This document shows, piece by piece, positions 12,001 to 30,720 of a stretch of DNA of 64,000 nt. The position numbers and the translations under genes were made by a program. Numbering within the stretch: the stretch's first letter is position 1; the number at the start of each line of letters is the position of its first letter. The notes under the pieces were generated by a model that saw nothing but the letters and a program-made list of their open reading frames with translations, was not told where the DNA came from and did no database searches. Source of the DNA: a virus; IMG/VR virus record IMGVR_UViG_3300031758_000022, positions 39,023 through 103,022 of that record. The stretch is one strand, 5' to 3'.

Positions 12001-12030
12001 AAAAAAGAGGGATGTTACTCCCTCTTTTTT
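12001..12030 (-). terminator. Intrinsic terminator (bidirectional)
   Basis: AAAAAAGAGGGA-TGTTAC-TCCCTCTTTTTT. Confidence 0.75.
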
Positions 12031-13381
12031 ATTGAAATTCGGATTTTACAACATTGTTAATAAGCATACTAATAGCCTCAGGAGCTTTAGACATTTCTGT
12101 AACAACAGTATTGTATTTGTACAACTCTTGAACTCCAGTATAGTTAAAACCTATACCGCAAGCTACAAAACCGTCCCTTTTGCATTTTTCAACAATTCTC
12201 TTTAAATCATCACGGTCTGAAGAGCTTCCATATCTGTAACCTGCAGGTTGACCATCAGAAATTACAATGAAAAGAATGTTCTTATCAGTATAAGATCTAA
12301 TTTTGTCATAGATATTGTCAATAACAGGACCATCATAATTCTCTAAAAAGTTTACTCTATTTTGACGAGCATAAGCTTTTTCAAAAATCTGGTTGTACTT
12401 GTCATTATATACATGAATTTCAGGAACATTACCACCTGTATGACCATATATATAAATGTCTTTAGGATCCATTACTTGAGAGAATGTCAAATAAAGCATT
12501 TTTGTAATACTGTGTTGGCTATCTCTATAACCAGAATAGTCCATACTACCACTCTCATCATTTAGAATGCAAACACTAAAAGGCTTAGTTCTATCATGAA
12601 GCTCTTTTCTAAAATTGATAAGATGATTTCCTGCTATTGCCTCAGCAATTTTAGGAATATCTATTTTACCAGTTCTTAGATTAGTAATTTTAGTCTCATC
12701 CTGATCAAAAGAAATATCAAGAAGATTTAACAGTTTTTCAGAGTTTTTTACTTCATTGGAATTATAATGATGTTCACTCTCCTGCTCAGACATAACCTTA
12801 AATGTAGTATTCTTTTTAAGATCTTCATAACAGCTAGAACTAGATTTATAGTCACCCCATATATTAGAACGAGTTTGCTTCTCAACAGAATTTATTTCAC
12901 TTCTTAAAAAATCCTTAGTTGATTTACCTATAGACAAATAGTCTTCAGTATCCTCATCTTTTAAGGAAAATTTATAAGTAATTGTTGAATTACTTATCAA
13001 ATTACTATAATTAGTAAATAATGAAGAAAGCTCCTTTTCATTCTTTATGATACCTCTTAAACAAGCTTTTACAGATTCTTTATTAAAAGTGTAAACAATA
13101 CTTGATCTATATACACCATATCCATAGAAATTGTCTACTTTTTCTGCTTTACAAGATTCTAAAAATGTATCTTGATAACCGTATTTGTTAACAGCATTGA
13201 TAAAAACAGCTAGTAGCTTCTTTTCAGAATAAGGACTAATATATTGAGATTTATCTCCCGCTGTAATGTTAAAACCATAAGGCATTTTCATTTCAGGAAG
13301 ATCCCATAAAAGCTGGGAAAACCCTCCAAAATCGGAGGATTCCCAGCCACTTTTACTAAAAAACTTTTTTACTTTACCCAT
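12029..13381 (-). CDS. VWA domain protein (CobT/NorD-like)
   Basis: RTGKIDI, MIDAS DESGSM, N.DG, VISDGQP. Confidence 0.8.
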   Translation of the reverse strand: MGKVKKFFSKSGWESSDFGGFSQLLWDLPEMKMPYGFNITAGDKSQYISPYSEKKLLAVFINAVNKYGYQDTFLESCKAEKVDNFYGYGVYRSSIVYTFNKESVKACLRGIIKNEKELSSLFTNYSNLISNSTITYKFSLKDEDTEDYLSIGKSTKDFLRSEINSVEKQTRSNIWGDYKSSSSCYEDLKKNTTFKVMSEQESEHHYNSNEVKNSEKLLNLLDISFDQDETKITNLRTGKIDIPKIAEAIAGNHLINFRKELHDRTKPFSVCILNDESGSMDYSGYRDSQHSITKMLYLTFSQVMDPKDIYIYGHTGGNVPEIHVYNDKYNQIFEKAYARQNRVNFLENYDGPVIDNIYDKIRSYTDKNILFIVISDGQPAGYRYGSSSDRDDLKRIVEKCKRDGFVACGIGFNYTGVQELYKYNTVVTEMSKAPEAISMLINNVVKSEFQ

Positions 13382-19559: not shown

Positions 19560-19955
19560 TTAATATGCATTTATCTTAATTTTTACCTCTGTTTTAATGA
19601 TCTCATAAGATGACTTCATACTATCAAAACCATCTAAGAAACTCAGTAGAATAAACATCTGTGATGCCTCTGAGTAGTCCATTTTATTATTATTCATAGG
19701 AAGTTCTGTCCAAGTATAGACATCATCTACATAAATAACCTGTGCTGCAATCTTTCCAGCAACTGATGGATCCCAAGAAGCATTGTCTGCATAGTACATA
19801 GTAATTCTTTGGCCTGTAGACTTAGTAAATTCTGCAACTTCTATTACATATTCAATGTGATGCTCACCTTGAGTTTTATCCATTACATAATAAAACCTCT
19901 GTGTGCTTTTATCAATAGTAAAAGCATCTTTTGTTTTCTTTTTCTTTTTAGCCAT
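19560..19955 (-). CDS. Hypothetical protein
   Basis: Start moved to MAKKKKK (19955) because the upstream ATG lies inside a tRNA-like RNA. Confidence 0.6.
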   Translation of the reverse strand: MAKKKKKTKDAFTIDKSTQRFYYVMDKTQGEHHIEYVIEVAEFTKSTGQRITMYYADNASWDPSVAGKIAAQVIYVDDVYTWTELPMNNNKMDYSEASQMFILLSFLDGFDSMKSSYEIIKTEVKIKINAY

Positions 19956-19971
19956 AAAATTTAATAATTTG

Positions 19972-20060
19972 TTCCCTATACAAGATTTGAACTTGTATCC
20001 TACCATAAGGTAGATGTTACTCTCAATGCCAGTATTTATTCCTGGTTACACCAATAGGGA
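19972..20060 (-). ncRNA. tRNA-like RNA with expanded D-loop and 4-nt anticodon loop
   Basis: Acceptor TCCCTAT/ATAGGGA; T-arm ACAAG-TTCAAAT-CTTGT; D-stem GTGT/ACAT with inserted CCAG..CTGG hairpin; anticodon arm CTACC-TTAT-GGTAG. Confidence 0.65.
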
Positions 20061-20064
20061 TCTT

Positions 20065-20172
20065 AAGTCAAGACAGGATTTTACCTGTATGATATACACT
20101 TTGCAGGCAACCTAATCAATGATTCAAGGCTGTATATCTTACCACATTAGCGTCTAATTCCGCCACCTGACT
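20065..20172 (-). ncRNA. tRNA-Leu-like RNA lacking a canonical anticodon arm
   Basis: AGTCAGG/CTTGACT acceptor; TGGCGGAATTAGACGC D-arm; long GATATACA/TGTATATC arm; T-like arm ACAGG-TAAAAT-CCTGT. Confidence 0.55.
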
Positions 20173-20179
20173 ATTTACT

Positions 20180-20422
20180 TCAATACTTTAAAAGAGTAAT
20201 GCTATAATCTCCACAGATTTTCTTGAGAGAAGAATCTTGGGCGGTAAATGTGATACATACCGCTGATACTTGCTTGAAGTCATTGGTATAATACTTATTC
20301 CGGCCAGCATCTTCTACAAGATATAGATAGTCTGATGGATGTGAGTTTAGAAATACAACAGGATCAGGTGAGTATAGCTTACACCCAGTAAGCATCATCA
20401 CTAATACTATTAAATATTTCAT
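20180..20422 (-). CDS. Putative lipoprotein
   Basis: MKYLIVLVMMLTGC lipobox. Confidence 0.6.
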   Translation of the reverse strand: MKYLIVLVMMLTGCKLYSPDPVVFLNSHPSDYLYLVEDAGRNKYYTNDFKQVSAVCITFTAQDSSLKKICGDYSITLLKY

Positions 20423-20426
20423 TGTC

Positions 20427-20705
20427 TTACCAGATTATTGAAACAGCATGATCTGGTACTAGGAAAAAGAAATCTTCCTCAATCTGAATGACCTCTGAGT
20501 GTGCAATAGCTGCACCTACATATACTAGGTCACCTGGTTTGATGTCTGTTACATCATCACCTACAGCAAACACTTCAAGCTTACTGTATTTCATCATTAG
20601 ATCTTTTTCAAGACTAGCCTCCATCTCAGGAGTTAGTTCTATTAAAGATTCTTTTCTAACAATTGGCTTCTTAATAAGAATTCGTTTGCCTCTAACTTTT
20701 TGCAT
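20427..20705 (-). CDS. groES: GroES / Cpn10-like co-chaperonin
   Basis: RG.RILI..., EVFAVGDDV.DIKPGDLVY. Confidence 0.75.
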   Translation of the reverse strand: MQKVRGKRILIKKPIVRKESLIELTPEMEASLEKDLMMKYSKLEVFAVGDDVTDIKPGDLVYVGAAIAHSEVIQIEEDFFFLVPDHAVSIIW

Positions 20706-20740
20706 AATTTGATGGTTTTAGACCGTAAATGTACAATAAT

Positions 20741-21124
20741 TTATATTGATACAATATAATAAAAGAATGCTAAATCAGCATACATAACCATCAGATAAGC
20801 TCTATCACCTTCTTTATTAAGTCCAACATCAACATGACATCTTATCCCTTCATCATCCTTACCATAGAAGGTAGTAGACTTAGAGTTTTGATTGTATGTA
20901 CCCTCAATATTGATGATGTATAGGTGCTCAGCATAAATGATTACCCTTGACTTCTCTATACCAATCCTAATTGTAGGATAGGTAGCAGGACTCCAATTGT
21001 ATTCAGTTTCATACTCTTTTTTAACACCAATGTTGGCCTGTGTAGTTTCAAACCACACAGTCTCCTGGCAAAAAGCGCTAGTTGTTATGACAACAAATAG
21101 TAATATCAGTATAAGTTTTTTCAT
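20741..21124 (-). CDS. Secreted/periplasmic protein
   Basis: Signal peptide MKKLILILLFVVITTSAFC followed by Gln (Bacteroidota Q-rule style). Confidence 0.6.
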   Translation of the reverse strand: MKKLILILLFVVITTSAFCQETVWFETTQANIGVKKEYETEYNWSPATYPTIRIGIEKSRVIIYAEHLYIINIEGTYNQNSKSTTFYGKDDEGIRCHVDVGLNKEGDRAYLMVMYADLAFFYYIVSI

Positions 21125-21384
21125 TATTTCTTTGTTTTATAAACTAAATCACAGACTTCTATATACTCTAAATGTTTCATTTGAAGATATCTGTTAAGAA
21201 TCCGGGCCTTTGCCTCTAAATCCTCAACACTGTCTTTTAATGACTGAACATAAGAATAATCTGTTTTATGCTTAATCAATTTAGTGGGCTCTTTAGCACT
21301 CAAACTAAATTGAACTCCTATAATAGCAAGTATTATGATAATAATTACTATTATTGTTACATACTTAAAATTTGTTATTTTCAT
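21124..21384 (-). CDS. Membrane-anchored protein
   Basis: Ile-rich N-terminal TM. Confidence 0.55.
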   Translation of the reverse strand: MKITNFKYVTIIVIIIIILAIIGVQFSLSAKEPTKLIKHKTDYSYVQSLKDSVEDLEAKARILNRYLQMKHLEYIEVCDLVYKTKK

Positions 21385-21399
21385 AGCTTTTAGAATTGA

Positions 21400-21570
21400 T
21401 TAATTATCTACCGGCCAATAATAATCACAGGTAACTTTACCTTCATTATCTTCATCCCATTGAAAATCTCCATAGGATTGTCTAAATGGATTTGGTTCTG
21501 CAACAAATCTGTAACAAGTTAATCTCAAAGGACAAGTCTTGTTATCACACATTGCGGTATCTGGACTCAT
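21400..21570 (-). CDS. Small Cys-rich protein (56 aa, not in the ORF track)
   Basis: MSPDTAMCDNKTCPLRLTCYRF...CDYYW. Confidence 0.6.
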   Translation of the reverse strand: MSPDTAMCDNKTCPLRLTCYRFVAEPNPFRQSYGDFQWDEDNEGKVTCDYYWPVDN

Positions 21571-21585
21571 TTTGTTGTTTAATTT

Positions 21586-21885
21586 TTATTCTAGACACTT
21601 AGGATAGATGCAGTTGTCATTCAATGTACAACTCTCACCTTCTTTCTTTATTCCATTCTTAGAGCATTTGTCATCTCCTTTGAATATAGGATGGATTGGT
21701 AGATAGTCTTCGTGGTGTATTGTCCGCACACCTTCTAGGTATGCCTCCACAATCTGCTCACGCTCCATTACCTTAGCCTTTTTAATAAATTCATCAAATG
21801 TTGACCAGTCTAAACTTAGATGTGAGGATGAGCCATATTCTTCAAGCTCTTTCTTTAACCAGTCAATTGCCGTTTGTTTACTCAT
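21586..21885 (-). CDS. KQTA(V/I)xWL-family protein, copy 2
   Basis: Start MSKQTAIDWL at 21885; AK.ME.EQI..A motif shared with the neighbouring gene. Confidence 0.65.
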   Translation of the reverse strand: MSKQTAIDWLKKELEEYGSSSHLSLDWSTFDEFIKKAKVMEREQIVEAYLEGVRTIHHEDYLPIHPIFKGDDKCSKNGIKKEGESCTLNDNCIYPKCLE

Positions 21886-22099
21886 TTTCACCTCCGTATG
21901 TTTCGTTGTAGTATTGTTCTGCTTGGTCATTAGTCCATTGAGTATGTGGGTGTTTATCAAACACTCTTTGTCCTTCGATATGGGCATCAATCATCTGCTC
22001 CTTCTCCATTTGCTTGGCTTGTTTAAATATATTCGTCCAAAATGGATGTTGCTCTTTTATTTGCTCTACAAGCCATTCAACTGCAGTCTGTTTACTCAT
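21878..22099 (-). CDS. KQTA(V/I)xWL-family protein, copy 1
   Basis: MSKQTAVEWL...QAKQMEKEQMIDAH...AEQYYNETY. Confidence 0.65.
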   Translation of the reverse strand: MSKQTAVEWLVEQIKEQHPFWTNIFKQAKQMEKEQMIDAHIEGQRVFDKHPHTQWTNDQAEQYYNETYGGENE

Positions 22100-22254
22100 T
22101 GTTTCTCCTTTAGATATTTAACAAAAGTTTGATTACTAAGATCCCAATGTTTACCATTGAAGTAAGCATTAACTCTATTAGTATTACCCATCATAGTTTT
22201 TGTTTCTACAATATACTTTCCTGGGTTTTCAGGAAGAGATTCTAACCATTCCAT
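22096..22254 (-). CDS. Small hypothetical protein (52 aa, not in the ORF track)
   Basis: MEWLESLPENPGKYIV..., ATGA overlap with the next gene. Confidence 0.55.
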   Translation of the reverse strand: MEWLESLPENPGKYIVETKTMMGNTNRVNAYFNGKHWDLSNQTFVKYLKEKQ

Positions 22255-22256
22255 GT

Positions 22257-22559
22257 TTAGTCTGTCTTAGGGTGTTTACCATTCCACCATTCATATTCTG
22301 AGTTTTCAGTCATGAATCTGATGTAATGATTGTCTTCATCTTTGATTTCTTCTAGTATTTCTACTATTGGAGTAGTCAACCAATAATCTTGATTGGCATA
22401 TGTCCTAGCAGTTACACTGCCTACAAGTATAGAACAACCAACTGTTGGTATATGGCTTACTACTTTATCATAAGTACCATCTTCTTTCCAAGCAATTGCT
22501 TCAGATCTACCGCCATGTTCTTCTACATTGTCTCTTAATCTACGTAAGTGGAATGCCAT
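22257..22559 (-). CDS. Hypothetical protein
   Basis: W.TT.IVEI...F.T.NS.Y pattern. Confidence 0.6.
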   Translation of the reverse strand: MAFHLRRLRDNVEEHGGRSEAIAWKEDGTYDKVVSHIPTVGCSILVGSVTARTYANQDYWLTTPIVEILEEIKDEDNHYIRFMTENSEYEWWNGKHPKTD

Positions 22560-22595
22560 AATAATATATGTGGTTTGATTTTAATGCAATAATAG

Positions 22596-22775
22596 TAATA
22601 AGTATGTAGAGAGAAGGGGAAACGTTATCCCCCTTCTGCTCACTAATTAAACTGAAAAACTAAAAACTTAATGTTTGAGTCCTAGACTGACTCATCATTA
22701 TGAGAGCACAACACTCTCTACATACTTATTAGCAAACTGTAGAATCCAAGATATTACTACCAAGGATTCTACAGT
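22596..22775 (-). ncRNA. Candidate structured intergenic RNA
   Basis: 18-bp perfect inverted repeat (22596-22613 / 22714-22731) enclosing two hairpins, plus a 12-bp hairpin at 22736-22775. Confidence 0.45.
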
Positions 22776-22795
22776 CTATTTTATAAAGACTATGC

Positions 22796-23524
22796 TCAAT
22801 AGTCTTTATAAGTTTTGTGTAGCAGATTCAAAAGATATCCCGTATCATGAGGAATTCTTTCAAAATCACTACTGCTCTTGAGAGCATTAATCATTCTGTT
22901 GTGATCATACTTGCTACCAAGAGATCTATAAACAGAACAAAAAGCTGTATGAAATTTATTACTATTGGTTTTAACAACAGAACTTGCTTCAATCAGATTT
23001 TTTGTAAGTACTTCAGAATCAGGCATATTTACTGTGAAATTACCATTTCTAATAGAAGTTAGACCTCTACCTGATGTAGCAGATCCTCCAAGAATGCTAG
23101 CAGAAATTGCTACAGAAAGACCATTTTTGATAAAATGTTCCTTAAGTCTAAAGTAATTCTCATTACCAAGACCACAATATGCATTAACATAATCTGTCAA
23201 TGTCCATTTTTGTTGAACATTATTCAGAGTAGCCATCATATCCACAATTGTTGATACAGAATCTGTTTCAACAACAATACAGTGTACTTTTTTAATACGC
23301 AATCTCTTAAGAGATTCAACCAAGTGCTGACCATCAACATTGTAATACTCAGCCTTACCAGTAATTGCTGTAGTATATGCAAGAACAGGAGTTCTTAATA
23401 TACCTACACGGGCAATTGATTTTACTAGTGCTTGGACATGTTTTTCATTTTTTGCTCTATTGAAAGTAAGCTCCTTGATTTTATCAACAGCTATTTCAAC
23501 AAATTTGTGCTTAGAAAATTCCAT
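22796..23524 (-). CDS. ParB/Srx-like N-terminal domain protein
   Basis: NR....HV..L..SI...G...P, VDGQH, LN..QQKW...DY. Confidence 0.65.
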   Translation of the reverse strand: MEFSKHKFVEIAVDKIKELTFNRAKNEKHVQALVKSIARVGILRTPVLAYTTAITGKAEYYNVDGQHLVESLKRLRIKKVHCIVVETDSVSTIVDMMATLNNVQQKWTLTDYVNAYCGLGNENYFRLKEHFIKNGLSVAISASILGGSATSGRGLTSIRNGNFTVNMPDSEVLTKNLIEASSVVKTNSNKFHTAFCSVYRSLGSKYDHNRMINALKSSSDFERIPHDTGYLLNLLHKTYKDY

Positions 23525-23565
23525 TTGTGTTTTACTTTTTGTGTTTTCTTAATTTAAATAGTAAT

Positions 23566-23602
23566 AAAAATAAGGGGACCGGATGTTTCACCGGTCCCTT
23601 AT
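23566..23602 (-). terminator. Intrinsic terminator closing the large ncRNA
   Basis: GGGACCGG/CCGGTCCC stem followed by a T-rich tail on the minus strand. Confidence 0.75.
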
Positions 23603-23615
23603 GGCATCACGTAGA

Positions 23616-24116
23616 GCTTGAGAGAAAGTATTAGAACACCCTAACATTATACATGTTAGGACATAAACAGTGCAATATTCTATACGAGTGTTAGGCATCT
23701 CAGCCAATTCCCTCCAATACTACAGTATACTTGTTCTCTACTGGTCACAAAGAGACCGTCCAATACCTCCATATAAAAATAGGAAAGGGTACACCTTCTT
23801 ACCGACACTTCATTTTTCCAGGAAAACCTGTCCAAAAACTTATTAATTAATACTTTAGAACATTACAGGATAAAACATCCCTTTACTGTTGTTAAACATT
23901 AATCAACATTACATACTTCCTATGTATTGTTCTTGCATAAAAAATCCACATCAAACTGCTACCTTTTCATTATGTTCTTCACGCCAGAGGTTTAGCAGCC
24001 TCAGCCCTAAACGTACAGAATAATATAATAACTACTAGGATATTAGCTGGCTTTTCTTATACTTTGCGTAGTAGGCATTTATGAGTGTAAGTCTTTCAAT
24101 ACACTGCCTCTCAAGC
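23616..24116 (-). ncRNA. Large (~500 nt) ornate structured ncRNA candidate
   Basis: No ORF of 60 aa or more; 9-bp terminal stem GCTTGAGAG/CTCTCAAGC; nested long-range stems, more than 10 local hairpins and a loop-loop complementarity. Confidence 0.65.
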
Positions 24117-24121
24117 AATTA

Positions 24122-24958
24122 TTATAACTCCAGAGTTTTTAACTTCTCTGGTATGTCAATGTTATAATGCATTTTAACATGTTTACAGCTTTCATGATAA
24201 TGAATAGTACTACAACCGCAGTTATGACCTTTTTCAAAATGTGTAGCAAAGTGTAAATCATAGTCTTTAGGGATATCACCCCATGCACCACCACATCCTT
24301 GACTTAAAACAAGAACCTTTTTTCCCTTAGGTACTAATTTTTTAATATGGCCTAAGTAGTAATTCAGATCATCTCCTGAAGGTAAACCTTTAGAACTGAT
24401 ACATAATCTACTGCCATAATAAATCTTAACACCTTTGATCTTTTTAGCTTCTTCAATCAATGTTCTATGAAACCCTTTATCAAGGCTATTGTAACCAACT
24501 GATTCATCTACAAATAGATAAAGCTCTTGTTTGGTTTCAACAGTCATCTTCTTTTCATATAAAGCAAGATGAGGTTCTGATAGTAATTTCTTGAACACAC
24601 GCGGATAATTAAGCTTATCTTCAATAAGAAATTCAACCTTTGATAGTCTGATTAATTCTCTTTTGATTAAAGCTCTTTTATTCTCTGCATCTACTTTGGT
24701 AGAATCCATTCCTTTACCTCTTGATTTGCTAGGATTTTCTTTACTCTTAGCAGGTTGAGGTTTTTTAACAGATTTTTTCTGAGAAGGATTCTCTTTTCTT
24801 AACCTAGTAGCTACGCTTTGTAGCACCTCCGGACTGAGATCATTAACAGAATCAGGAGACACATTATACTCTTTACCTTTATAAGTATGAGTAAAACTTT
24901 TACTTTCTGATTTCATATAATAATCATCAAAAAGTTGTTGTTGTCTAAAATGTGGCAT
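24122..24958 (-). CDS. Degenerate VWA-like protein
   Basis: KLNYPRV, LYLFVDESVG (DxSxG), VLVLSQG; adjacent to a MoxR ATPase. Confidence 0.5.
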   Translation of the reverse strand: MPHFRQQQLFDDYYMKSESKSFTHTYKGKEYNVSPDSVNDLSPEVLQSVATRLRKENPSQKKSVKKPQPAKSKENPSKSRGKGMDSTKVDAENKRALIKRELIRLSKVEFLIEDKLNYPRVFKKLLSEPHLALYEKKMTVETKQELYLFVDESVGYNSLDKGFHRTLIEEAKKIKGVKIYYGSRLCISSKGLPSGDDLNYYLGHIKKLVPKGKKVLVLSQGCGGAWGDIPKDYDLHFATHFEKGHNCGCSTIHYHESCKHVKMHYNIDIPEKLKTLEL

Positions 24959-25024
24959 ATAATAAAGTAAAAAAGGGGTGAGACCTGCATCCCACCCCTT
25001 GATTAATTAAAAAACAAATGCTTA

Positions 25025-25888
25025 TTAAAGCATTGAACCAACATACGCTTCAGTATTCATTTGATAAGTAGACCTTAAATAATGAATAAACTTTTTCTGG
25101 TCCTCTTCTTCTTGAGAAAACTTCCATAGTAAAGCTCTATACTTCAATTCTTGAGAAGCTTTTCTACTAATAGGACAAGATCCTATAAAGTACAACTCTT
25201 GAATTAAGTCAGCCACCTGATTTTGACTCGGTTTCTTTTCCACCTCAAGCTTTCTATAAGCCATAACTAGATCAATTAAGAAATTGAATTTGCTAGTATT
25301 ATATGGTACAGTAAGCATAAGCCTAACTTGTTCAATAAGTTCAGCTCTTTCTGGAAAATGGAATTCGCGAATCAAGGATATACGCCTGTCAAGAGCATCC
25401 TCTAGTTCTCTTCTCTTATTAGATGTAAGTACAATGAACAAATTGTTTTTGTTACCATGTATAACACCTGTAAGAGGATCATTTAGAAGACATTCTTGCA
25501 TATAAGACAAAAGAAAAGTATCCACAGAAGGTTTAGCCTTATCAATTTCATCAATCAATAATACAACCTTGTGTGTTTGAGACTTCTTTAATGCCTGTAG
25601 TAAGTAGCCATCTTTCATTGCATCACGGCCAGATGTGTTTACATCTGTCATTGCATCAACCAAAGTGCCTAAGTCCCAGTTGAATACAAGCTGCTCTGAT
25701 GATACACCGTCATAACACGGTGCAAAAATCAGCTCAGCCTGTAATTCAGAAGCTAGAAACTTAGCAAAGCTAGTTTTACCAGCACCTGGTTCACCAAACA
25801 AAAGCATACTAGGTACGCATACAGTAGGATTGTTCATCAAATACTTGATATAACTAATATCCTGCAGTTTACTTTGGCTAAGTATCAT
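25025..25888 (-). CDS. MoxR-family AAA+ ATPase (AAA_5)
   Basis: GEPGAGKT, LLIDEIDKA, LTSN..REL.DAL.RR. Confidence 0.85.
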   Translation of the reverse strand: MILSQSKLQDISYIKYLMNNPTVCVPSMLLFGEPGAGKTSFAKFLASELQAELIFAPCYDGVSSEQLVFNWDLGTLVDAMTDVNTSGRDAMKDGYLLQALKKSQTHKVVLLIDEIDKAKPSVDTFLLSYMQECLLNDPLTGVIHGNKNNLFIVLTSNKRRELEDALDRRISLIREFHFPERAELIEQVRLMLTVPYNTSKFNFLIDLVMAYRKLEVEKKPSQNQVADLIQELYFIGSCPISRKASQELKYRALLWKFSQEEEDQKKFIHYLRSTYQMNTEAYVGSML

Positions 25889-26511
25889 TACTTATCACCT
25901 CCTAATCTTTTCTTAAGACTAATTAAGGCTCTAAGTAACTCTTTAAGTTCTTCAGGAGCATCTTCAGGAATATCATCTTCAGATGATAATTCAGAAACAG
26001 ATTCTTTAGAAGTTCCGGCTTTGATTTTAATTTCATCTCCTCTTCCAAGAGAATCAAGATGCTTTTTCAATTCATCAAGATCTGAACTAATCTTAGAAGA
26101 AGCCATTCTTGTATGAACTCCTTCATACACAGAAACAAAACCAGCTACCATTAGAAAGAAATGAATCTCTGGATCATCCATATTAATAAGATGTTCAAGT
26201 ACCTTAGATCTAGCATAACTGCCTTCTTCAGGATTCTCTTCAGATTCTTTCTTGGCAAAATCATGAAAAATCTTTACTAATTTTTCCTCGGCCATTTCTT
26301 TAGCCCATTGTTTGGAATAGCCTATAGCCTTCCAAAAGTCTATCTCAGGAGTGTGGTCAAATGGCTTTCTCCCTTTAGAGAACTTTCCATTACCACCCTC
26401 ATCTGGCAGATTAGTTGCTGCCCACATAAACGCTTTGTTACTAATAAGATTAGTAGGAGCATTGCTCAAAGCCTCCATAACTTGATTTTTGTAGTTACTT
26501 CCTTGACTCAT
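25888..26511 (-). CDS. Hypothetical protein
   Basis: 207-aa ORF coupled to the ATPase gene. Confidence 0.6.
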   Translation of the reverse strand: MSQGSNYKNQVMEALSNAPTNLISNKAFMWAATNLPDEGGNGKFSKGRKPFDHTPEIDFWKAIGYSKQWAKEMAEEKLVKIFHDFAKKESEENPEEGSYARSKVLEHLINMDDPEIHFFLMVAGFVSVYEGVHTRMASSKISSDLDELKKHLDSLGRGDEIKIKAGTSKESVSELSSEDDIPEDAPEELKELLRALISLKKRLGGDK

Positions 26512-26521
26512 GTCTTTTTTA

Positions 26522-26704
26522 TTAAAGGATTAGTTTTTTGGACAAATTTTCAATTTCTTTTTCAATTCTCTGTCTGTCCTTGTCAGAGAGTTGAGTAGTT
26601 CCTGGAACTGTTTTTCCATCTACTTTTAAGGGTTTAGTCCCTTTTTGAAGTTGTGCTTGTAGTCTTGAAACTACATTTTTTCTGCGATTTGATATATCTG
26701 CCAT
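26522..26704 (-). CDS. Small basic protein
   Basis: RL.AQL.KGTK...LSDKD..RIEKEI..L. Confidence 0.55.
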   Translation of the reverse strand: MADISNRRKNVVSRLQAQLQKGTKPLKVDGKTVPGTTQLSDKDRQRIEKEIENLSKKLIL

Positions 26705-26769
26705 ATAGGTTATAAAGATTTCAAAACAAAAACAGGGTTGGCTCTATTTATAGAAACCAACCCTGCATT

Positions 26770-26925
26770 TTAACTAATCCACCCCTTTACATAAAAATGT
26801 CCTGAAATCAAGCCTGATCTTCTCTCATTCATTGAGACTTTAACTGATTTGTAACGGGTCAATAGTCTAGCATAAGCAGTTTGAATACTGCTATACTCAC
26901 GATTAGTAAATTGTATTTGCTTCAT
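26770..26925 (-). CDS. Small hypothetical protein (51 aa, not in the ORF track)
   Basis: MKQIQFTNREYSSIQTAYARLL..., followed by a hairpin. Confidence 0.45.
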   Translation of the reverse strand: MKQIQFTNREYSSIQTAYARLLTRYKSVKVSMNERRSGLISGHFYVKGWIS

Positions 26926-26949
26926 GGTTAAGGGATTAAACGTTAAATG

Positions 26950-27021
26950 CCCCTTTAGCAGGATTCGAACCTACACACTCTGTTTAAAAACAGTGCTCTA
27001 ACCAGTTGGAGCTATAAAGGG
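26950..27021 (-). tRNA. tRNA-like gene with a 3-nt-short anticodon arm (Lys-like, undetermined)
   Basis: Acceptor CCCTTTA/TAAAGGG; D-arm GCTC-CAACTGGTTA-GAGC; T-arm GTAGG-TTCGAAT-CCTGC; anticodon arm only 14 nt, CTGTT-TTTA-AACAG. Confidence 0.75.
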
Positions 27022-27047
27022 TGCCTATTTAGGTCAGGCTTCTACAC

Positions 27048-27299
27048 TTAATTCTGAGACAAACTAGAATAGAATTCTCTTCTCTCATTTTCTTCTTTCA
27101 TATTCTTCTGTACAGTTTGTATACAGGCAAGAGTATCTTCTGAACTGATTCTATATCCAATAACTCTTACACTATTATACTGAGTATCCTTTTCAGGAAC
27201 AAGCATAATATGAATAAATGAGTTTCTGGATGTCATCACTTTCCAACAAAGACCTAGCTTAAGGAAGAAATACTGTACTGAGATTTTAAAATATTGCAT
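27048..27299 (-). CDS. Hypothetical protein
   Basis: 83-aa ORF. Confidence 0.5.
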   Translation of the reverse strand: MQYFKISVQYFFLKLGLCWKVMTSRNSFIHIMLVPEKDTQYNSVRVIGYRISSEDTLACIQTVQKNMKEENERREFYSSLSQN

Positions 27300-27335
27300 A
27301 TACTTAAATTATTAGATTTGCATTACATAGCTAAA

Positions 27336-27473
27336 TTAAACATTTTCAGTAATATCCAATGAATAAACCTCATTTGTACCATAAAAAGCTGCACGAGCAA
27401 ATGCTAATTCACGGTTTGGTGTGCACATCTCAATATTATGTGCATTGAAGTAAAAGTAAATAGATCTTGTCAT
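27336..27473 (-). CDS. Small hypothetical protein (45 aa, not in the ORF track)
   Basis: MTRSIYFYF...TPNRELAFARA; A/C-rich leader. Confidence 0.45.
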   Translation of the reverse strand: MTRSIYFYFNAHNIEMCTPNRELAFARAAFYGTNEVYSLDITENV

Positions 27474-27506
27474 TTGACTAAGTATTTGGTTTTTAATTAA
27501 TTAACA

Positions 27507-27890
27507 TTATTTAAAGTATTGGCTGTATACTAAATTAGTATTTTCTTCAGCCCATGTAACTATTTCTTCTTCCTTGTTGGTCACATCCCAATCATAGATG
27601 AGCAAGGACATATGAGCCATTTCGTGATTAATCAGGGTAATATCTCTATAGTCACCTTTAAGAGCAGACTTATTGATAAATATAAAAGGCAGCGGTGTTT
27701 TAGAAAGGGTACTATCTCTAGGATCATAGTTGCAAAAGCCATCTATGTATGTACCACCTTCAGCAATGCGGCAGATACACTTGTCTTTACTGACACCGTG
27801 CATCTCCTGGACATTGTAATAATCAAACAAATCTACAGCATTGTTACCAATGAGTAGTACAAACTGAGCATAATAGATAATCTGCATCAT
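27507..27890 (-). CDS. HExxH zinc-metallopeptidase-like protein
   Basis: FIFIN...LINHEMAH...EEE. Confidence 0.6.
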   Translation of the reverse strand: MMQIIYYAQFVLLIGNNAVDLFDYYNVQEMHGVSKDKCICRIAEGGTYIDGFCNYDPRDSTLSKTPLPFIFINKSALKGDYRDITLINHEMAHMSLLIYDWDVTNKEEEIVTWAEENTNLVYSQYFK

Positions 27891-27913
27891 GTAAGTTTTA
27901 AGTTAATTACGGT

Positions 27914-28053
27914 TTATCCCTCTGCACTCAGTTGTAATAGCATTCAAACTGTATTTCTACAGAACTCAAGCGTATATCAGGATTAGAGTTTTTATTTCTT
28001 CCTATCTATTACAACTGCTATCCCTTGGGAAGATAGTTATGGTGCATTAATAA
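27914..28053 (-). ncRNA. Twister self-cleaving ribozyme (P1 type, enlarged P5)
   Basis: TTAT-TAA-TGCA-CC-ATAA-CTATC-TTCCCAAGG-GATAG-[12-bp P5 plus insert]-AG-TGCA-GA-GGG-ATAA: P1, UAA, P2, P4 and both pseudoknots present. Confidence 0.8.
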
Positions 28054-28197
28054 TGAGGGTTATCTGAACACCCACAAACGCCAGCATCTTACTGGATAGT
28101 TATTTACAATATTTAATGTGCAGTGTAATAACAAAAGGCACAAGTATTCTCTATACTCACAGATATCCCGCCTGTGTATATTATTAACCCCCTACTA

Positions 28198-28310
28198 TAT
28201 AAGAGAGAGAGAGAGGATAAGAATAATACAAAGAGAGGATAAGAAGAAACGTAGTAGCTATGTAGTTAAAAGAGAGGAATAGAGAAAAAAGTAAGTTGAG
28301 GTAGAGTATA
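28198..28310. repeat. Purine-rich tract with AGAGAGGATAAGAA direct repeats
   Basis: Repeat copies at 28210 and 28232, (GA)n run, extreme strand skew. Confidence 0.5.
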
Positions 28311-28345
28311 AAAAAAGAGAGAGTGGATTACCCACCCTCTCTCTT
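28311..28345 (-). terminator. Intrinsic terminator
   Basis: AAGAGAGAG.GTGG../..CCAC.CTCTCTCTT stem plus a T-run on the minus strand. Confidence 0.65.
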
Positions 28346-28386
28346 CAACATAATACACTAACACTCAACAACTTAGAGACACTTGG

Positions 28387-28917
28387 TTAGTCTCCAAGTG
28401 TCTCATTTTCTTCCTCTTCCTCTGTGAAGACCTCACTACCGCCAACTTCATCCTCACTGCTTGCCAGAATGAGTCTACCTCCTTGATTTTCAAGGGATTG
28501 CATCTGCATTTGTATAGCACTTGCCAATGCAGGATACTTAATTGCTTGTGCTTTAAGCTCAAGCAGTTCAGTGTTATCAGCTGCGAAGCCAATTCTACCG
28601 TCTTCCTTCACATAGTAAGAGAGTTGTTTCTCTTTACCCATATGTGTGGAAGTGTGATAGAGTGGCACTTCCTTACCTGCAATAAGCTGTGGCTTACCTT
28701 CAGGTGTGGTTAGTACTTTGTAGTAGTCAGTGCCATCTTGGCGCTTAAACTGCTTGTACATAGCGAGTTCCTTAGGACTGGCATCCATAATGCCATAGCG
28801 CCACATAGTCACTACTTCAGTAAGTGGCTTGTTAGTCACTTCATTGAGAACAGGTAAACCGTTTACATCCTTGATGATGCGGGCTTTCTCGTAGCCATTG
28901 ATTAGTTTTAACTTCAT
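28387..28917 (-). CDS. Early protein (paralog of 29305-29706)
   Basis: KLK...RY....S.KELA.Y motif, acidic tail. Confidence 0.7.
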   Translation of the reverse strand: MKLKLINGYEKARIIKDVNGLPVLNEVTNKPLTEVVTMWRYGIMDASPKELAMYKQFKRQDGTDYYKVLTTPEGKPQLIAGKEVPLYHTSTHMGKEKQLSYYVKEDGRIGFAADNTELLELKAQAIKYPALASAIQMQMQSLENQGGRLILASSEDEVGGSEVFTEEEEENETLGD

Positions 28918-29045
28918 AACTGTTTGTTATTTACTTGATTTATAATTGTTTACTTAGTCTCTTGTACCTTTTAGATTTATCTAAAGGTACCTTGTATAAT
29001 AGGTTATAGAAAATAATAATGAATATTAAAACGTTAGTTTTAATA

Positions 29046-29240
29046 AATGCACCCAAGAATGTGGTGAGACTTAACTCACTGATTCTCAGTACCAAAGTGC
29101 TCCTGCTCCACAGGGCAGAGACAACTTAGTCTCTATTCTCACTCATCACTTGAGTGTAAATAGAGGATAAGGTGAACACAGAGGATAATCCACAAGTTAG
29201 AAATAACTTGGTCCCTTACAGATTGCTAACACAATCTGTA
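29046..29240 (-). ncRNA. Candidate ~195-nt structured early ncRNA
   Basis: Starts directly after the motif copy at 29241, has no substantial ORF, is a run of hairpins and ends at the hairpin 29024-29045. Confidence 0.5.
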
Positions 29241-29304
29241 TAATAGGTTATAAAGAATAATAATGAAAAAAAAAAATAACAGGGTGTTAACCCTGTTATT
29301 ATCA

Positions 29305-29706
29305 TTACTCCTTCTCATCCAACTTCTCCTCAGGAGATTCCTCAGGAGCGTTAGCTCCAAAGATCCTGTCCAGCATTTGATCACCAAGAATCCGTAAGGC
29401 TTCAGGTGATTTCTGAGCCATATATTCTAAGTTCCCGAAGGACTGATCATCAATGTGCCAAGTACCCTTGGTATCATTGCGCTCAATGCTCTTGCCTGCC
29501 ATAGGCGGAAGCCAAGAGAAGTAGAGCATCTCCTTAGTGACCTTATCAAAGGCGCCGCAGGTGCCCTTGACAATATCCTTACGGAACAAGGCAAGCTCTG
29601 CTTTGCTACCGTGGACGGTATAAGCATAGCGCGTCTGTTTTCTGTTAGACACTTTGTTCATCATAGTGAACTGTGTCTTAAGCTTGATTGTGAGTGTGTT
29701 TCTCAT
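29305..29706 (-). CDS. Early protein (paralog of 28387-28917)
   Basis: IKLK...RYAY...GSKAELALF, acidic tail. Confidence 0.7.
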   Translation of the reverse strand: MRNTLTIKLKTQFTMMNKVSNRKQTRYAYTVHGSKAELALFRKDIVKGTCGAFDKVTKEMLYFSWLPPMAGKSIERNDTKGTWHIDDQSFGNLEYMAQKSPEALRILGDQMLDRIFGANAPEESPEEKLDEKE

Positions 29707-29791
29707 TGTATTATGTATTTATGTAAACTTAGTAATAGGTTATAAAAAAGAGGAGTAAGGCGTTAGCCTTACCCTCACCCCACAAAAGAGC

Positions 29792-29932
29792 CTAAGCTCT
29801 TTTCTTCTCTGTGCCTAACAACAGAGCAGATGCTACAATGCAGAGCATAGAGATGCCGGTTAACAGGGCATCACCTATAAACATAGATGCAAACAAGCAG
29901 ATAATGGATGTAGATAACAAAACGGTATTCAT
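29792..29932 (-). CDS. Small two-TM membrane protein (46 aa, not in the ORF track)
   Basis: MNTVLLSTSIICLFASMFIGDALLTGISMLCIVASALLLGTEKKRA; 25 nt downstream of a motif copy. Confidence 0.6.
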   Translation of the reverse strand: MNTVLLSTSIICLFASMFIGDALLTGISMLCIVASALLLGTEKKRA

Positions 29933-30010
29933 AGCATTGGATTTAGTACAAACAAGTAATAGGTTATAACAAAAAAAAAGGGGATGTTAGTCCCCTTTTT
30001 CTGTGAATCC

Positions 30011-30313
30011 TTAAAGGCTTGGCTCTTCAGAGTCAGCATCTGCCAACGCATAGCAATTCCTCGCAAGGTTTGCTGCCTCCATAAGTTGAATCTGTAAGAA
30101 CTCACGGTTAATAATTGATTTGAACTCTTTAAGAGATTCATCCCCATACTCCCCATTGGAAATAGCATCAAAGGCTGTAGATAATTCACGAGCCTTCTGT
30201 CTGATACCAATGAGTTGAGGTGTGTAACTCAATAAGAGTTCATTTAATAATTCAGCATCTATTGATGTTGATGTGCGTCCCGCGCAGGACAAGATTACTT
30301 TTCCTTTTTTCAT
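30011..30313 (-). CDS. Early hypothetical protein
   Basis: 100 aa; ATG 27 nt downstream of a motif copy. Confidence 0.65.
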   Translation of the reverse strand: MKKGKVILSCAGRTSTSIDAELLNELLLSYTPQLIGIRQKARELSTAFDAISNGEYGDESLKEFKSIINREFLQIQLMEAANLARNCYALADADSEEPSL

Positions 30314-30383
30314 AATGATTGTGTATTAATGTAATACAGTAATAGGTTATAAAAATATATAGGACATTAGTCCTATATATATA

Positions 30384-30521
30384 CTAGTTGCAACCAACCC
30401 AAGGTACATAGATGTAGCCTGGGTGCAGCCACAGCTCCACAGGATGCATGTTCAAGGTGTGCAAGGCATCGTCAAAGGTGAGCAACTTGCCTGTGTCAAC
30501 AAGGTAAATGAATTCATTCAT
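30384..30521 (-). CDS. Small early protein (45 aa, not in the ORF track)
   Basis: MNEFIYLVDTGKLLTFDDALHTLNMHPVELWLHPGYIYVPWVGCN; ATG 27 nt downstream of a motif copy. Confidence 0.6.
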   Translation of the reverse strand: MNEFIYLVDTGKLLTFDDALHTLNMHPVELWLHPGYIYVPWVGCN

Positions 30522-30720
30522 GGTAGAAAAATTTAATTTTTCTAGCCTAATAGGTTATTCCTCTTAGTTGCTTGATAGGGGGTACCACCACTCTCAGACT
30601 GGGCCGGGGCCTGTTTTATTATAACCCACCATCCTCTACTCTTCAGACAAAATTTTTTTTACCATAAAATTTTTATACTGTCCCGAATATCAATATCTTA
30701 GCAATCTAATAATTACAATC

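Follow-up and report, generated by a model that had tools for sequence, protein, structure and literature searches.

Do the structured RNAs crowded into one part of a phage genome work together, or are they independent modules that happen to be neighbours? We asked this of a stretch of 64,000 nucleotides (nt), hereafter the window, which covers bases 39023-103022 of the 103-kb IMG/VR virus record IMGVR_UViG_3300031758_000022 and comes from an uncultured phage. Within 9 kb of it (19972-29240), an earlier note had described an island of seven structured RNAs, including three that resemble transfer RNAs (tRNAs), a twister ribozyme, an "ornate" RNA of ~500 nt and two further structured gaps, and had proposed that they may form one RNA-based system. 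In our view the island is probably a mosaic early/middle accessory region, in which several independent non-coding RNA modules lie between small genes. Its elements and genes are on the minus strand throughout, and all coordinates are given on that strand (Table 1).

The distribution of the elements among relatives carries this view. We compared the island with six near-complete relatives (G001-G006) and with L301, a metagenome contig that is collinear with the island at ~91% identity and is its closest relative. None of the elements occurs in G001 or G002. G003 has one twister and one ordinary tRNA, G004 two twisters and no tRNA-like RNA, and G005 tRNA-like RNAs and no twister; in G006 a pattern scan found none of the elements, and the covariance model R1 (see below) found one twister. 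Among 31 twisters with 3-kb flanks on both sides, 8 have a tRNA-shaped element within 3 kb and 23 have no such neighbour. Even L301 has lost or swapped single elements. In its twister the P4 helix is another one (CTCAG/CTGAG) and the P5 arm is unrelated; the downstream gene is replaced and the HExxH gene missing, in flanks that are 91-97% identical. The second tRNA-like RNA is missing from it, and a tRNA-Leu-type shell (a tRNA-shaped frame around an exchangeable insert) stands at another place.

Because the elements come and go independently, the comparison does not support one coordinated system in which ribozyme and tRNA-like cut sites release defined stable RNAs, and we regard such a system as unlikely. 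It would account for the placing of all elements on the gene strand within 9 kb, for the relatives in which a tRNA cluster encloses a twister or a gap of 3-7 nt separates it from a shell, for a 60-nt motif that regularly lies upstream of twisters, and for the tandem of tRNA-like RNAs 2 and 1, which is kept in the relative L304. Apart from their independent presence and absence, however, only five of the seven elements held up as RNAs, the two that did not being the "ornate" RNA and the stretch 28054-28300. Furthermore, the variable parts share no sequence: 108 twister P5 arms and 48 shell inserts gave no cross matches, nor did arms or inserts have antisense matches to the phage genome. Taken singly, each element may plausibly mark a place where a long transcript of the same strand is cut, since such a role fits known twisters, RNase P and RNase Z substrates, and the twister-shell spacing of 3-7 nt.

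The twister, although missed by Rfam, is supported as a twister-like element by a family of some 200 related elements whose stems covary. Parsed by hand from 28053 to 27914, the window copy reads P1 (TTAT), U^AA, P2 (TGCAC), C, ATAA, P4 (CTATC), the loop L4 (TTCCCAAGG, which carries CCCAAG), P4' (GATAG), a 12-bp P5 with an interior of ~70 nt, A, P2' (GTGCA), GAGGG and P1' (ATAA). P2 is thus formed by 28046-28042 with 27930-27926 and P4 by 28036-28032 with 28022-28018, and GAGGG lies at 27925-27921. The cut is most likely to fall between U28049 and A28048, as predicted from this fold. The element ends 24 nt before the ATG of a 127-aa open reading frame (ORF; 27507-27890).

To collect the family, we scanned the IMG/VR collection with an 18-mer from the 3' half, which gave at least 120 loci and at least 116 distinct instances, and with a pattern from the 5' half, which likewise gave at least 120 loci. 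Model R1 was built from 48 aligned copies; it matched 98 times in 80 loci and scored the window's sole copy at 110 bits. In the 48 copies P4 was paired in 99%, with double changes at all 5 of its pairs (96-99% pairing across sets), and the base of P5 and P1 covaried too, P1 being paired in 59-63% with double changes. The 5'-half set contained P2 in the versions TGCAC/GTGCA, TGTAC/GTACA, TGCGT/ACGCA, TGTGT/ACACA, TGTAT/ATACA and TGCAT/ATGCA. Because these variants covary, at three pairs, we assign five base pairs (bp) to P2, including the first C of the canonical T1 strand.

Among the R1 matches, changes on both sides were seen at 22 of 28 pairs and none of 500 shuffles reached the observed covariation, in an alignment that is fitted to the model and so favours the structure. 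UAA, TTCCCAAGG and GAGGG were invariant in all 48 aligned copies, which the collecting pattern partly forces; when copies were gathered by their 5' half alone, variants of GAGGG occurred but were rare. Across ~90 distinct copies the single-stranded core is invariant while the stems covary. A T2 pseudoknot (CCC with GGG) can be formed, but both strands are invariant, hence uninformative.

Known twisters cut at U-A, need pseudoknots between L4 and L1 and between L4 and L2, and tolerate the loss of P1 (PMC6154101). The element at 27910-28057 shares with type P1 twisters (RF03160; PMC6154101, PMC6765202) the P1 ends, a U-A(A) 5' of P2, the helices P1, P2 and P4, the CCCAAG of L4 with its CCC able to pair with the GGG of a GAGGG between P2' and P1' (T2), and the phage context. 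It differs in its arm at the P5 position: optional in those twisters and carried by ~1% of the annotated ones (PMC6154101), this arm occurs in every copy here, is 40-170 nt long and is hypervariable. In addition, a fifth P2 pair takes up the C that normally opens the T1 strand, the last two nucleotides of L4 are GG and not GC, there is no P3, Rfam models do not detect the family, and cleavage is predicted only. We conclude that the family is most likely a divergent branch of the twisters in which a hypervariable P5 arm is obligatory, and that the element is predicted to cleave.

The twisters of this family mostly precede genes. The next ATG-initiated ORF lies within 100 nt for 69 of 127 copies, and the 113 proteins encoded downstream fall into 84 clusters. 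In bacteria, twisters lie close to phage genes, and the processing of polycistronic RNA has been put forward as their role, which is still an open question (PMC6765202). A branch of hundreds of copies, missed by the standard catalogue and bordering a diverse range of exchangeable phage genes on their 5' side, offers one idea on this point, namely that the ribozyme may insulate and process gene cassettes.

Tandem twisters were observed in L206, L225, L186 and L261, where the 3' end of one copy abuts TAATGCACC of the next; self-cleavage of such tandems would release whole ribozyme units including their P5 arms. A second twister-like class (L108, L114, L140, L168, L202, L206 and others) is without TAATGCACC. 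Its 5' half has GAAACCAC, a covarying helix CTGATTAA/TTAATCAG around a variable hairpin, and then TCCCAAGG; it scores lower with model R1.

The claim of three tRNA-like RNAs without a canonical tRNA also stands. Two of them are recognised by Rfam and one by its resemblance to a tRNA-Leu shell, and ARAGORN found no canonical tRNA in the whole 103-kb record. The 7-nt anticodon loop is missing from all three. They retain the upper half of a tRNA and are unable to read codons.

In tRNA-like RNA 3 a 14-nt arm (CTGTT-TTTA-AACAG, with a 5-bp stem and a 4-nt loop) stands where a 17-nt anticodon arm is expected, and the ARAGORN output is "tRNA-??? (tt)", that is, a 2-nt "anticodon". In tRNA-like RNA 1, which sits 16 nt ahead of the ATG at 19955, a 7-bp acceptor stem and a T arm with the loop TTCAAAT are combined with a 37-nt D region into which a CCAG/CTGG hairpin is inserted; a TTAT-looped hairpin of 5 bp replaces the anticodon arm. 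For one tRNA-like element ARAGORN proposed a poorly paired Leu(gag) arm.

tRNA-like RNA 2 lies in tandem with tRNA-like RNA 1 and was reported by neither Rfam nor ARAGORN. An 8-bp stem with a 32-nt loop takes the place of its anticodon and variable arms, and its T loop (TAAAATC) is atypical. It is a divergent member of a Leu-shell family of the form AGTCAGG-TGGCGGAATTGGTAGACGC, insert, ACAGGTTCGAATCCTGT-CCTGACT-AC. We collected 40 shell candidates by the D arm and T loop alone; at least 6 of the 7 acceptor pairs were formed in 34 of them, in 19 versions, around inserts of 30-112 nt. The anticodon arm is absent in every AGTCAGG shell and present in the true tRNA-Leu(UAA) genes of the same phages. 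In L193 at least 6-7 Leu-type shells with differing inserts were found in ~2 kb.

Could these elements simply be relics, that is, decaying tRNA pseudogenes next to an inactive twister? Ordinary tRNAs (Arg-TCT, Leu-TAA, Met and Lys) do occur in relatives at comparable places downstream of twisters, tRNA-like RNA 3 is only 2-3 nt away from a near-canonical shape, and the T loop of tRNA-like RNA 2 would fit decay as well. Yet that atypical loop recurs in L304. Moreover, in L301 and L304 the acceptor stem of tRNA-like RNA 1 has changed from TAT/ATA to TGT/ACA and its T stem from ACAAG/CTTGT to GTGGG/CCCAC, and the hairpin stem has been replaced too; all changes are compensatory, while the TTAT loop and the 37-nt D region with its insert are unchanged. 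Two of 73 positions differ between tRNA-like RNA 3 and its L301 homologue, compared with a divergence of 8.5% at third codon positions. Together with the twister core, kept among covarying stems, this makes decay of the whole set very unlikely.

One of the two differences in tRNA-like RNA 3 is an extra A in the loop of the L301 copy (L301 2676-2749), which ARAGORN calls tRNA-Stop(tta), although TAA is the main stop codon of the phage. The window copy might therefore be a suppressor tRNA with anticodon UUA, disabled by a one-base deletion or by a homopolymer assembly error, and crAss-like phages are known to use suppressor tRNAs (PMC10879173). We consider this improbable. Under the standard code the gene map is compact, with TAA ending 79 of 110 ORFs. 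The L301 call requires a missing nucleotide 26 and a C-A mismatch, and by hand parse its arm is still 1-2 nt short. In L203 and L210, related elements carry hairpins of 24-34 nt at the place of the anticodon arm. We also rejected stop-codon recoding as a cause of the gaps or of tRNA-like RNA 3, since the standard code fits.

The earlier note had further suggested decoys against host RNA-targeting defence, for which we found no support: the look-alikes are without the anticodon loop that anticodon nucleases recognise, and thus without the means to mimic such a substrate. More broadly, the tRNA look-alikes, and perhaps the variable arms, might act as decoys or sponges for such defences or for tRNA-binding enzymes, e.g., leucyl-tRNA synthetase (LeuRS). 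The shells keep the tRNA-Leu D arm and the A discriminator, and the anticodon is not known to be required by bacterial LeuRS. Phages exchange the hypervariable inserts among themselves, and the location in the early region would also suit this role. This evidence is circumstantial, however, no defence or counter-defence gene was recognised near the elements, and the inserts match nothing in the phage genome, so that we assign decoys a low probability.

The structures, their covariation and their distribution were observed in the sequences themselves; the mosaic that we favour could work as follows. The twister would cut its own transcript at the predicted site. The RNA upstream would come off, and the folded ribozyme would cap the 5'-OH end of the mRNA downstream. 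In this way the ribozyme may naturally insulate an exchangeable gene cassette at its 5' border. Host RNase P and RNase Z would cut the tRNA-shaped RNAs out of the transcript, leaving stable RNAs behind, with punctuation of the polycistronic RNA as a side effect. The element at 22600-22727 would be a further structured RNA and 23525-24121 a long untranslated tail ending in a terminator.

Several observations weigh against this account. With regard to independence, tRNA-shaped neighbours of twisters are never on the opposite strand, which leaves room for a loose functional link, and in some relatives (e.g., L148, L192 and L124) the two abut. With regard to the ribozyme, Rfam twister models (RF03160, RF02684 and relatives) had no match at E<=10 in the window, the genome, six relatives or a short family member cut down to a 161-nt slice. 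About half of the copies have a weak P1 or none, and the T1 pseudoknot is reduced to at most one clear pair, the first C of its "CC" being taken by the fifth P2 pair. Finally, a terminator lies ~260 nt upstream of the twister, with no promoter identified between them.

A more far-reaching possibility is that P5-bearing twisters and Leu shells are self-processing scaffolds with which freshwater crAss-like phages express exchangeable, hypervariable, trans-acting inserts, the early region being a hotspot for RNA accessory cassettes. We think this rather unlikely; if it is true, the inserts could act, e.g., against host defence or on host gene expression.

Similar RNAs are known from cultured phages. 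Species 1 and 2 of phage T4 are small stable RNAs of tRNA-like shape that do not decode and whose function is unexplained. In the T5 record, RNA1 (NC_005859 30501-30644) is annotated beside tRNAs as "tRNA-like stable RNA with unknown functions". By analogy, the elements studied here appear alike in tRNA-like shape, small size and lack of decoding. The T4 and T5 RNAs are encoded among or beside tRNA genes. As differences, the phage studied here has no ordinary tRNA at all, it belongs to environmental crAss-like phages, and one of its elements falls in a tRNA-Leu shell family with exchangeable inserts. With the anticodon-less look-alikes, the stable tRNA-like RNAs known from T4 and T5 would be extended to environmental phages that are abundant. 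Another parallel is given by the theta ribozymes, which resemble those of hepatitis delta virus, flank phage tRNAs, directly 3' of suppressor tRNAs, and are thought to aid processing (PMC10879173). In both cases a small self-cleaving class is found in phage tRNA regions; the class differs, however (and is a candidate here), and the twister mostly precedes protein genes, with a minority of copies abutting tRNA-shaped RNAs.

Table 1. Features of the island, with z-scores against dinucleotide shuffles and Rfam scores where available
Feature	Position	Strand	Score	Remarks
tRNA-like RNA 1	19972..20060	-	Rfam tRNA 30.1 bits	gathering score 29
tRNA-like RNA 2, tRNA-Leu-type shell	20065..20172	-		AGTCAGG acceptor; GGCGGAATT..GACGC D arm
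Structured ~128-nt element	22600..22727	-	z -7.7 (22566-22795)	14-bp closing helix 22727-22714/22613-22600 around four hairpins
Non-coding gap, claimed "ornate RNA"	23525..24121	-	z -3.0 (whole gap); z -2.6 (core, 23616-24116)	not supported as structured RNA; terminator 23598-23575
tRNA-like RNA 3	26950..27021	-	Rfam tRNA 47.8 bits	normal acceptor, D and T arms
Candidate type P1 twister (self-cleaving ribozyme)	27910..28057	-		~90-nt P5 arm; hand parse and covarying family
Pyrimidine-rich spacer, unstructured	28054..28300	-	z -1.0	between terminator and twister
TATAACCTATTA copies, two of six	28997-29008 and 29241-29252	-		bracket the hairpin-rich stretch 29046-29240
Hairpin-rich non-coding stretch	29046..29240	-	z -5.2	downstream of a promoter-like motif copy

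The remaining gaps differ in structure. Seven coding segments, which served as calibration, gave z-scores of -2.2 to -4.5. Of three further gaps, 22566-22795 and 29046-29240 exceed this range and 28054-28300 does not reach it.

The element at 22600-22727, with a separate 11-bp hairpin (22737-22774) upstream of it, is 94% identical in L301, where the closing helix shows the compensatory change GTAT/ATAC to ACAT/ATGT and a Leu-shell stands just upstream. Other than L301, no homologue was found in the relatives' DNA or in IMG/VR.

The stretch 29046-29240 contains a conserved motif of ~60 nt (~29072-29135) that includes a TGA(T/G)AATCA palindrome. Copies are known from at least 22 relatives; in each case a twister lies 0.4-2.9 kb downstream on the same strand. 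We rejected it as a gene start, as no ORF of more than 29 aa follows, and consider a folded small RNA doubtful, as the first hairpin is lost in many copies. Judging from this pattern, a regulatory sequence signal is more likely than a folded RNA. In L217, L101 and L103 the AT-rich non-coding stretch between the motif and the twister shares the short blocks TATAGCTAA, AGTAACATA and CTTCCGGAA; it could be a regulatory or origin-like region.

The "ornate" RNA proved to be a false lead. Its core, 23616-24116, scores within the range of the coding controls, and the only homologue is in the 91%-identical L301; in 3.4 Mb of DNA from relatives, neither blastn nor tblastn of the open fragments found another. 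Scanning IMG/VR with an 18-mer produced a single chance match in an unrelated GC-rich gene, and the gap is missing from the syntenic place in G006. It differs from L301 by 5.9%, compared with 4.6% at codon positions 1 and 2 and 8.5% at third positions (p = 0.07 against the third), so that its divergence appears near neutral. The last ~50 nt of the pyrimidine-rich spacer are kept in four close relatives (BLAST identity of 91-95% for 28054-28102).

The hairpin-rich stretch belongs to a region in which the motif TATAACCTATTA occurs six times (28997-30559, 1.2 copies expected). Most copies come after a terminator-like hairpin and before a small ORF, and the island genes lie downstream. By its sequence and arrangement, this looks like a phage-specific early promoter array.

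With regard to its source, the phage is crAss-like as judged from its portal protein, which is distantly related to those of crAss-like phages: the best match is at 33% to Leptolyngbya phage Lbo-JY46, and further matches are to csAssE-Sib and Cellulophaga phages. Major capsid proteins at 83-94% identity are encoded by more than 600 IMG/VR contigs. A BLAST search of the island against GenBank phages gave no match, and a 278-aa gene had no homologues in IMG/VR. Among the island proteins a ParB-like protein, an AAA ATPase and a GroES-like protein were recognised, and no RNA-processing enzyme. A Y-RNA/Ro reading was rejected: no YrlA match was found, and the vWA protein at 12029-13381 looks CobT-like.

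Finally, two adjacent small ORFs at 21586-22099 share the start motif MSKQTA..W. Several short stretches of DNA in G006 and G008 match this start, suggesting that the small genes form a multi-copy family.

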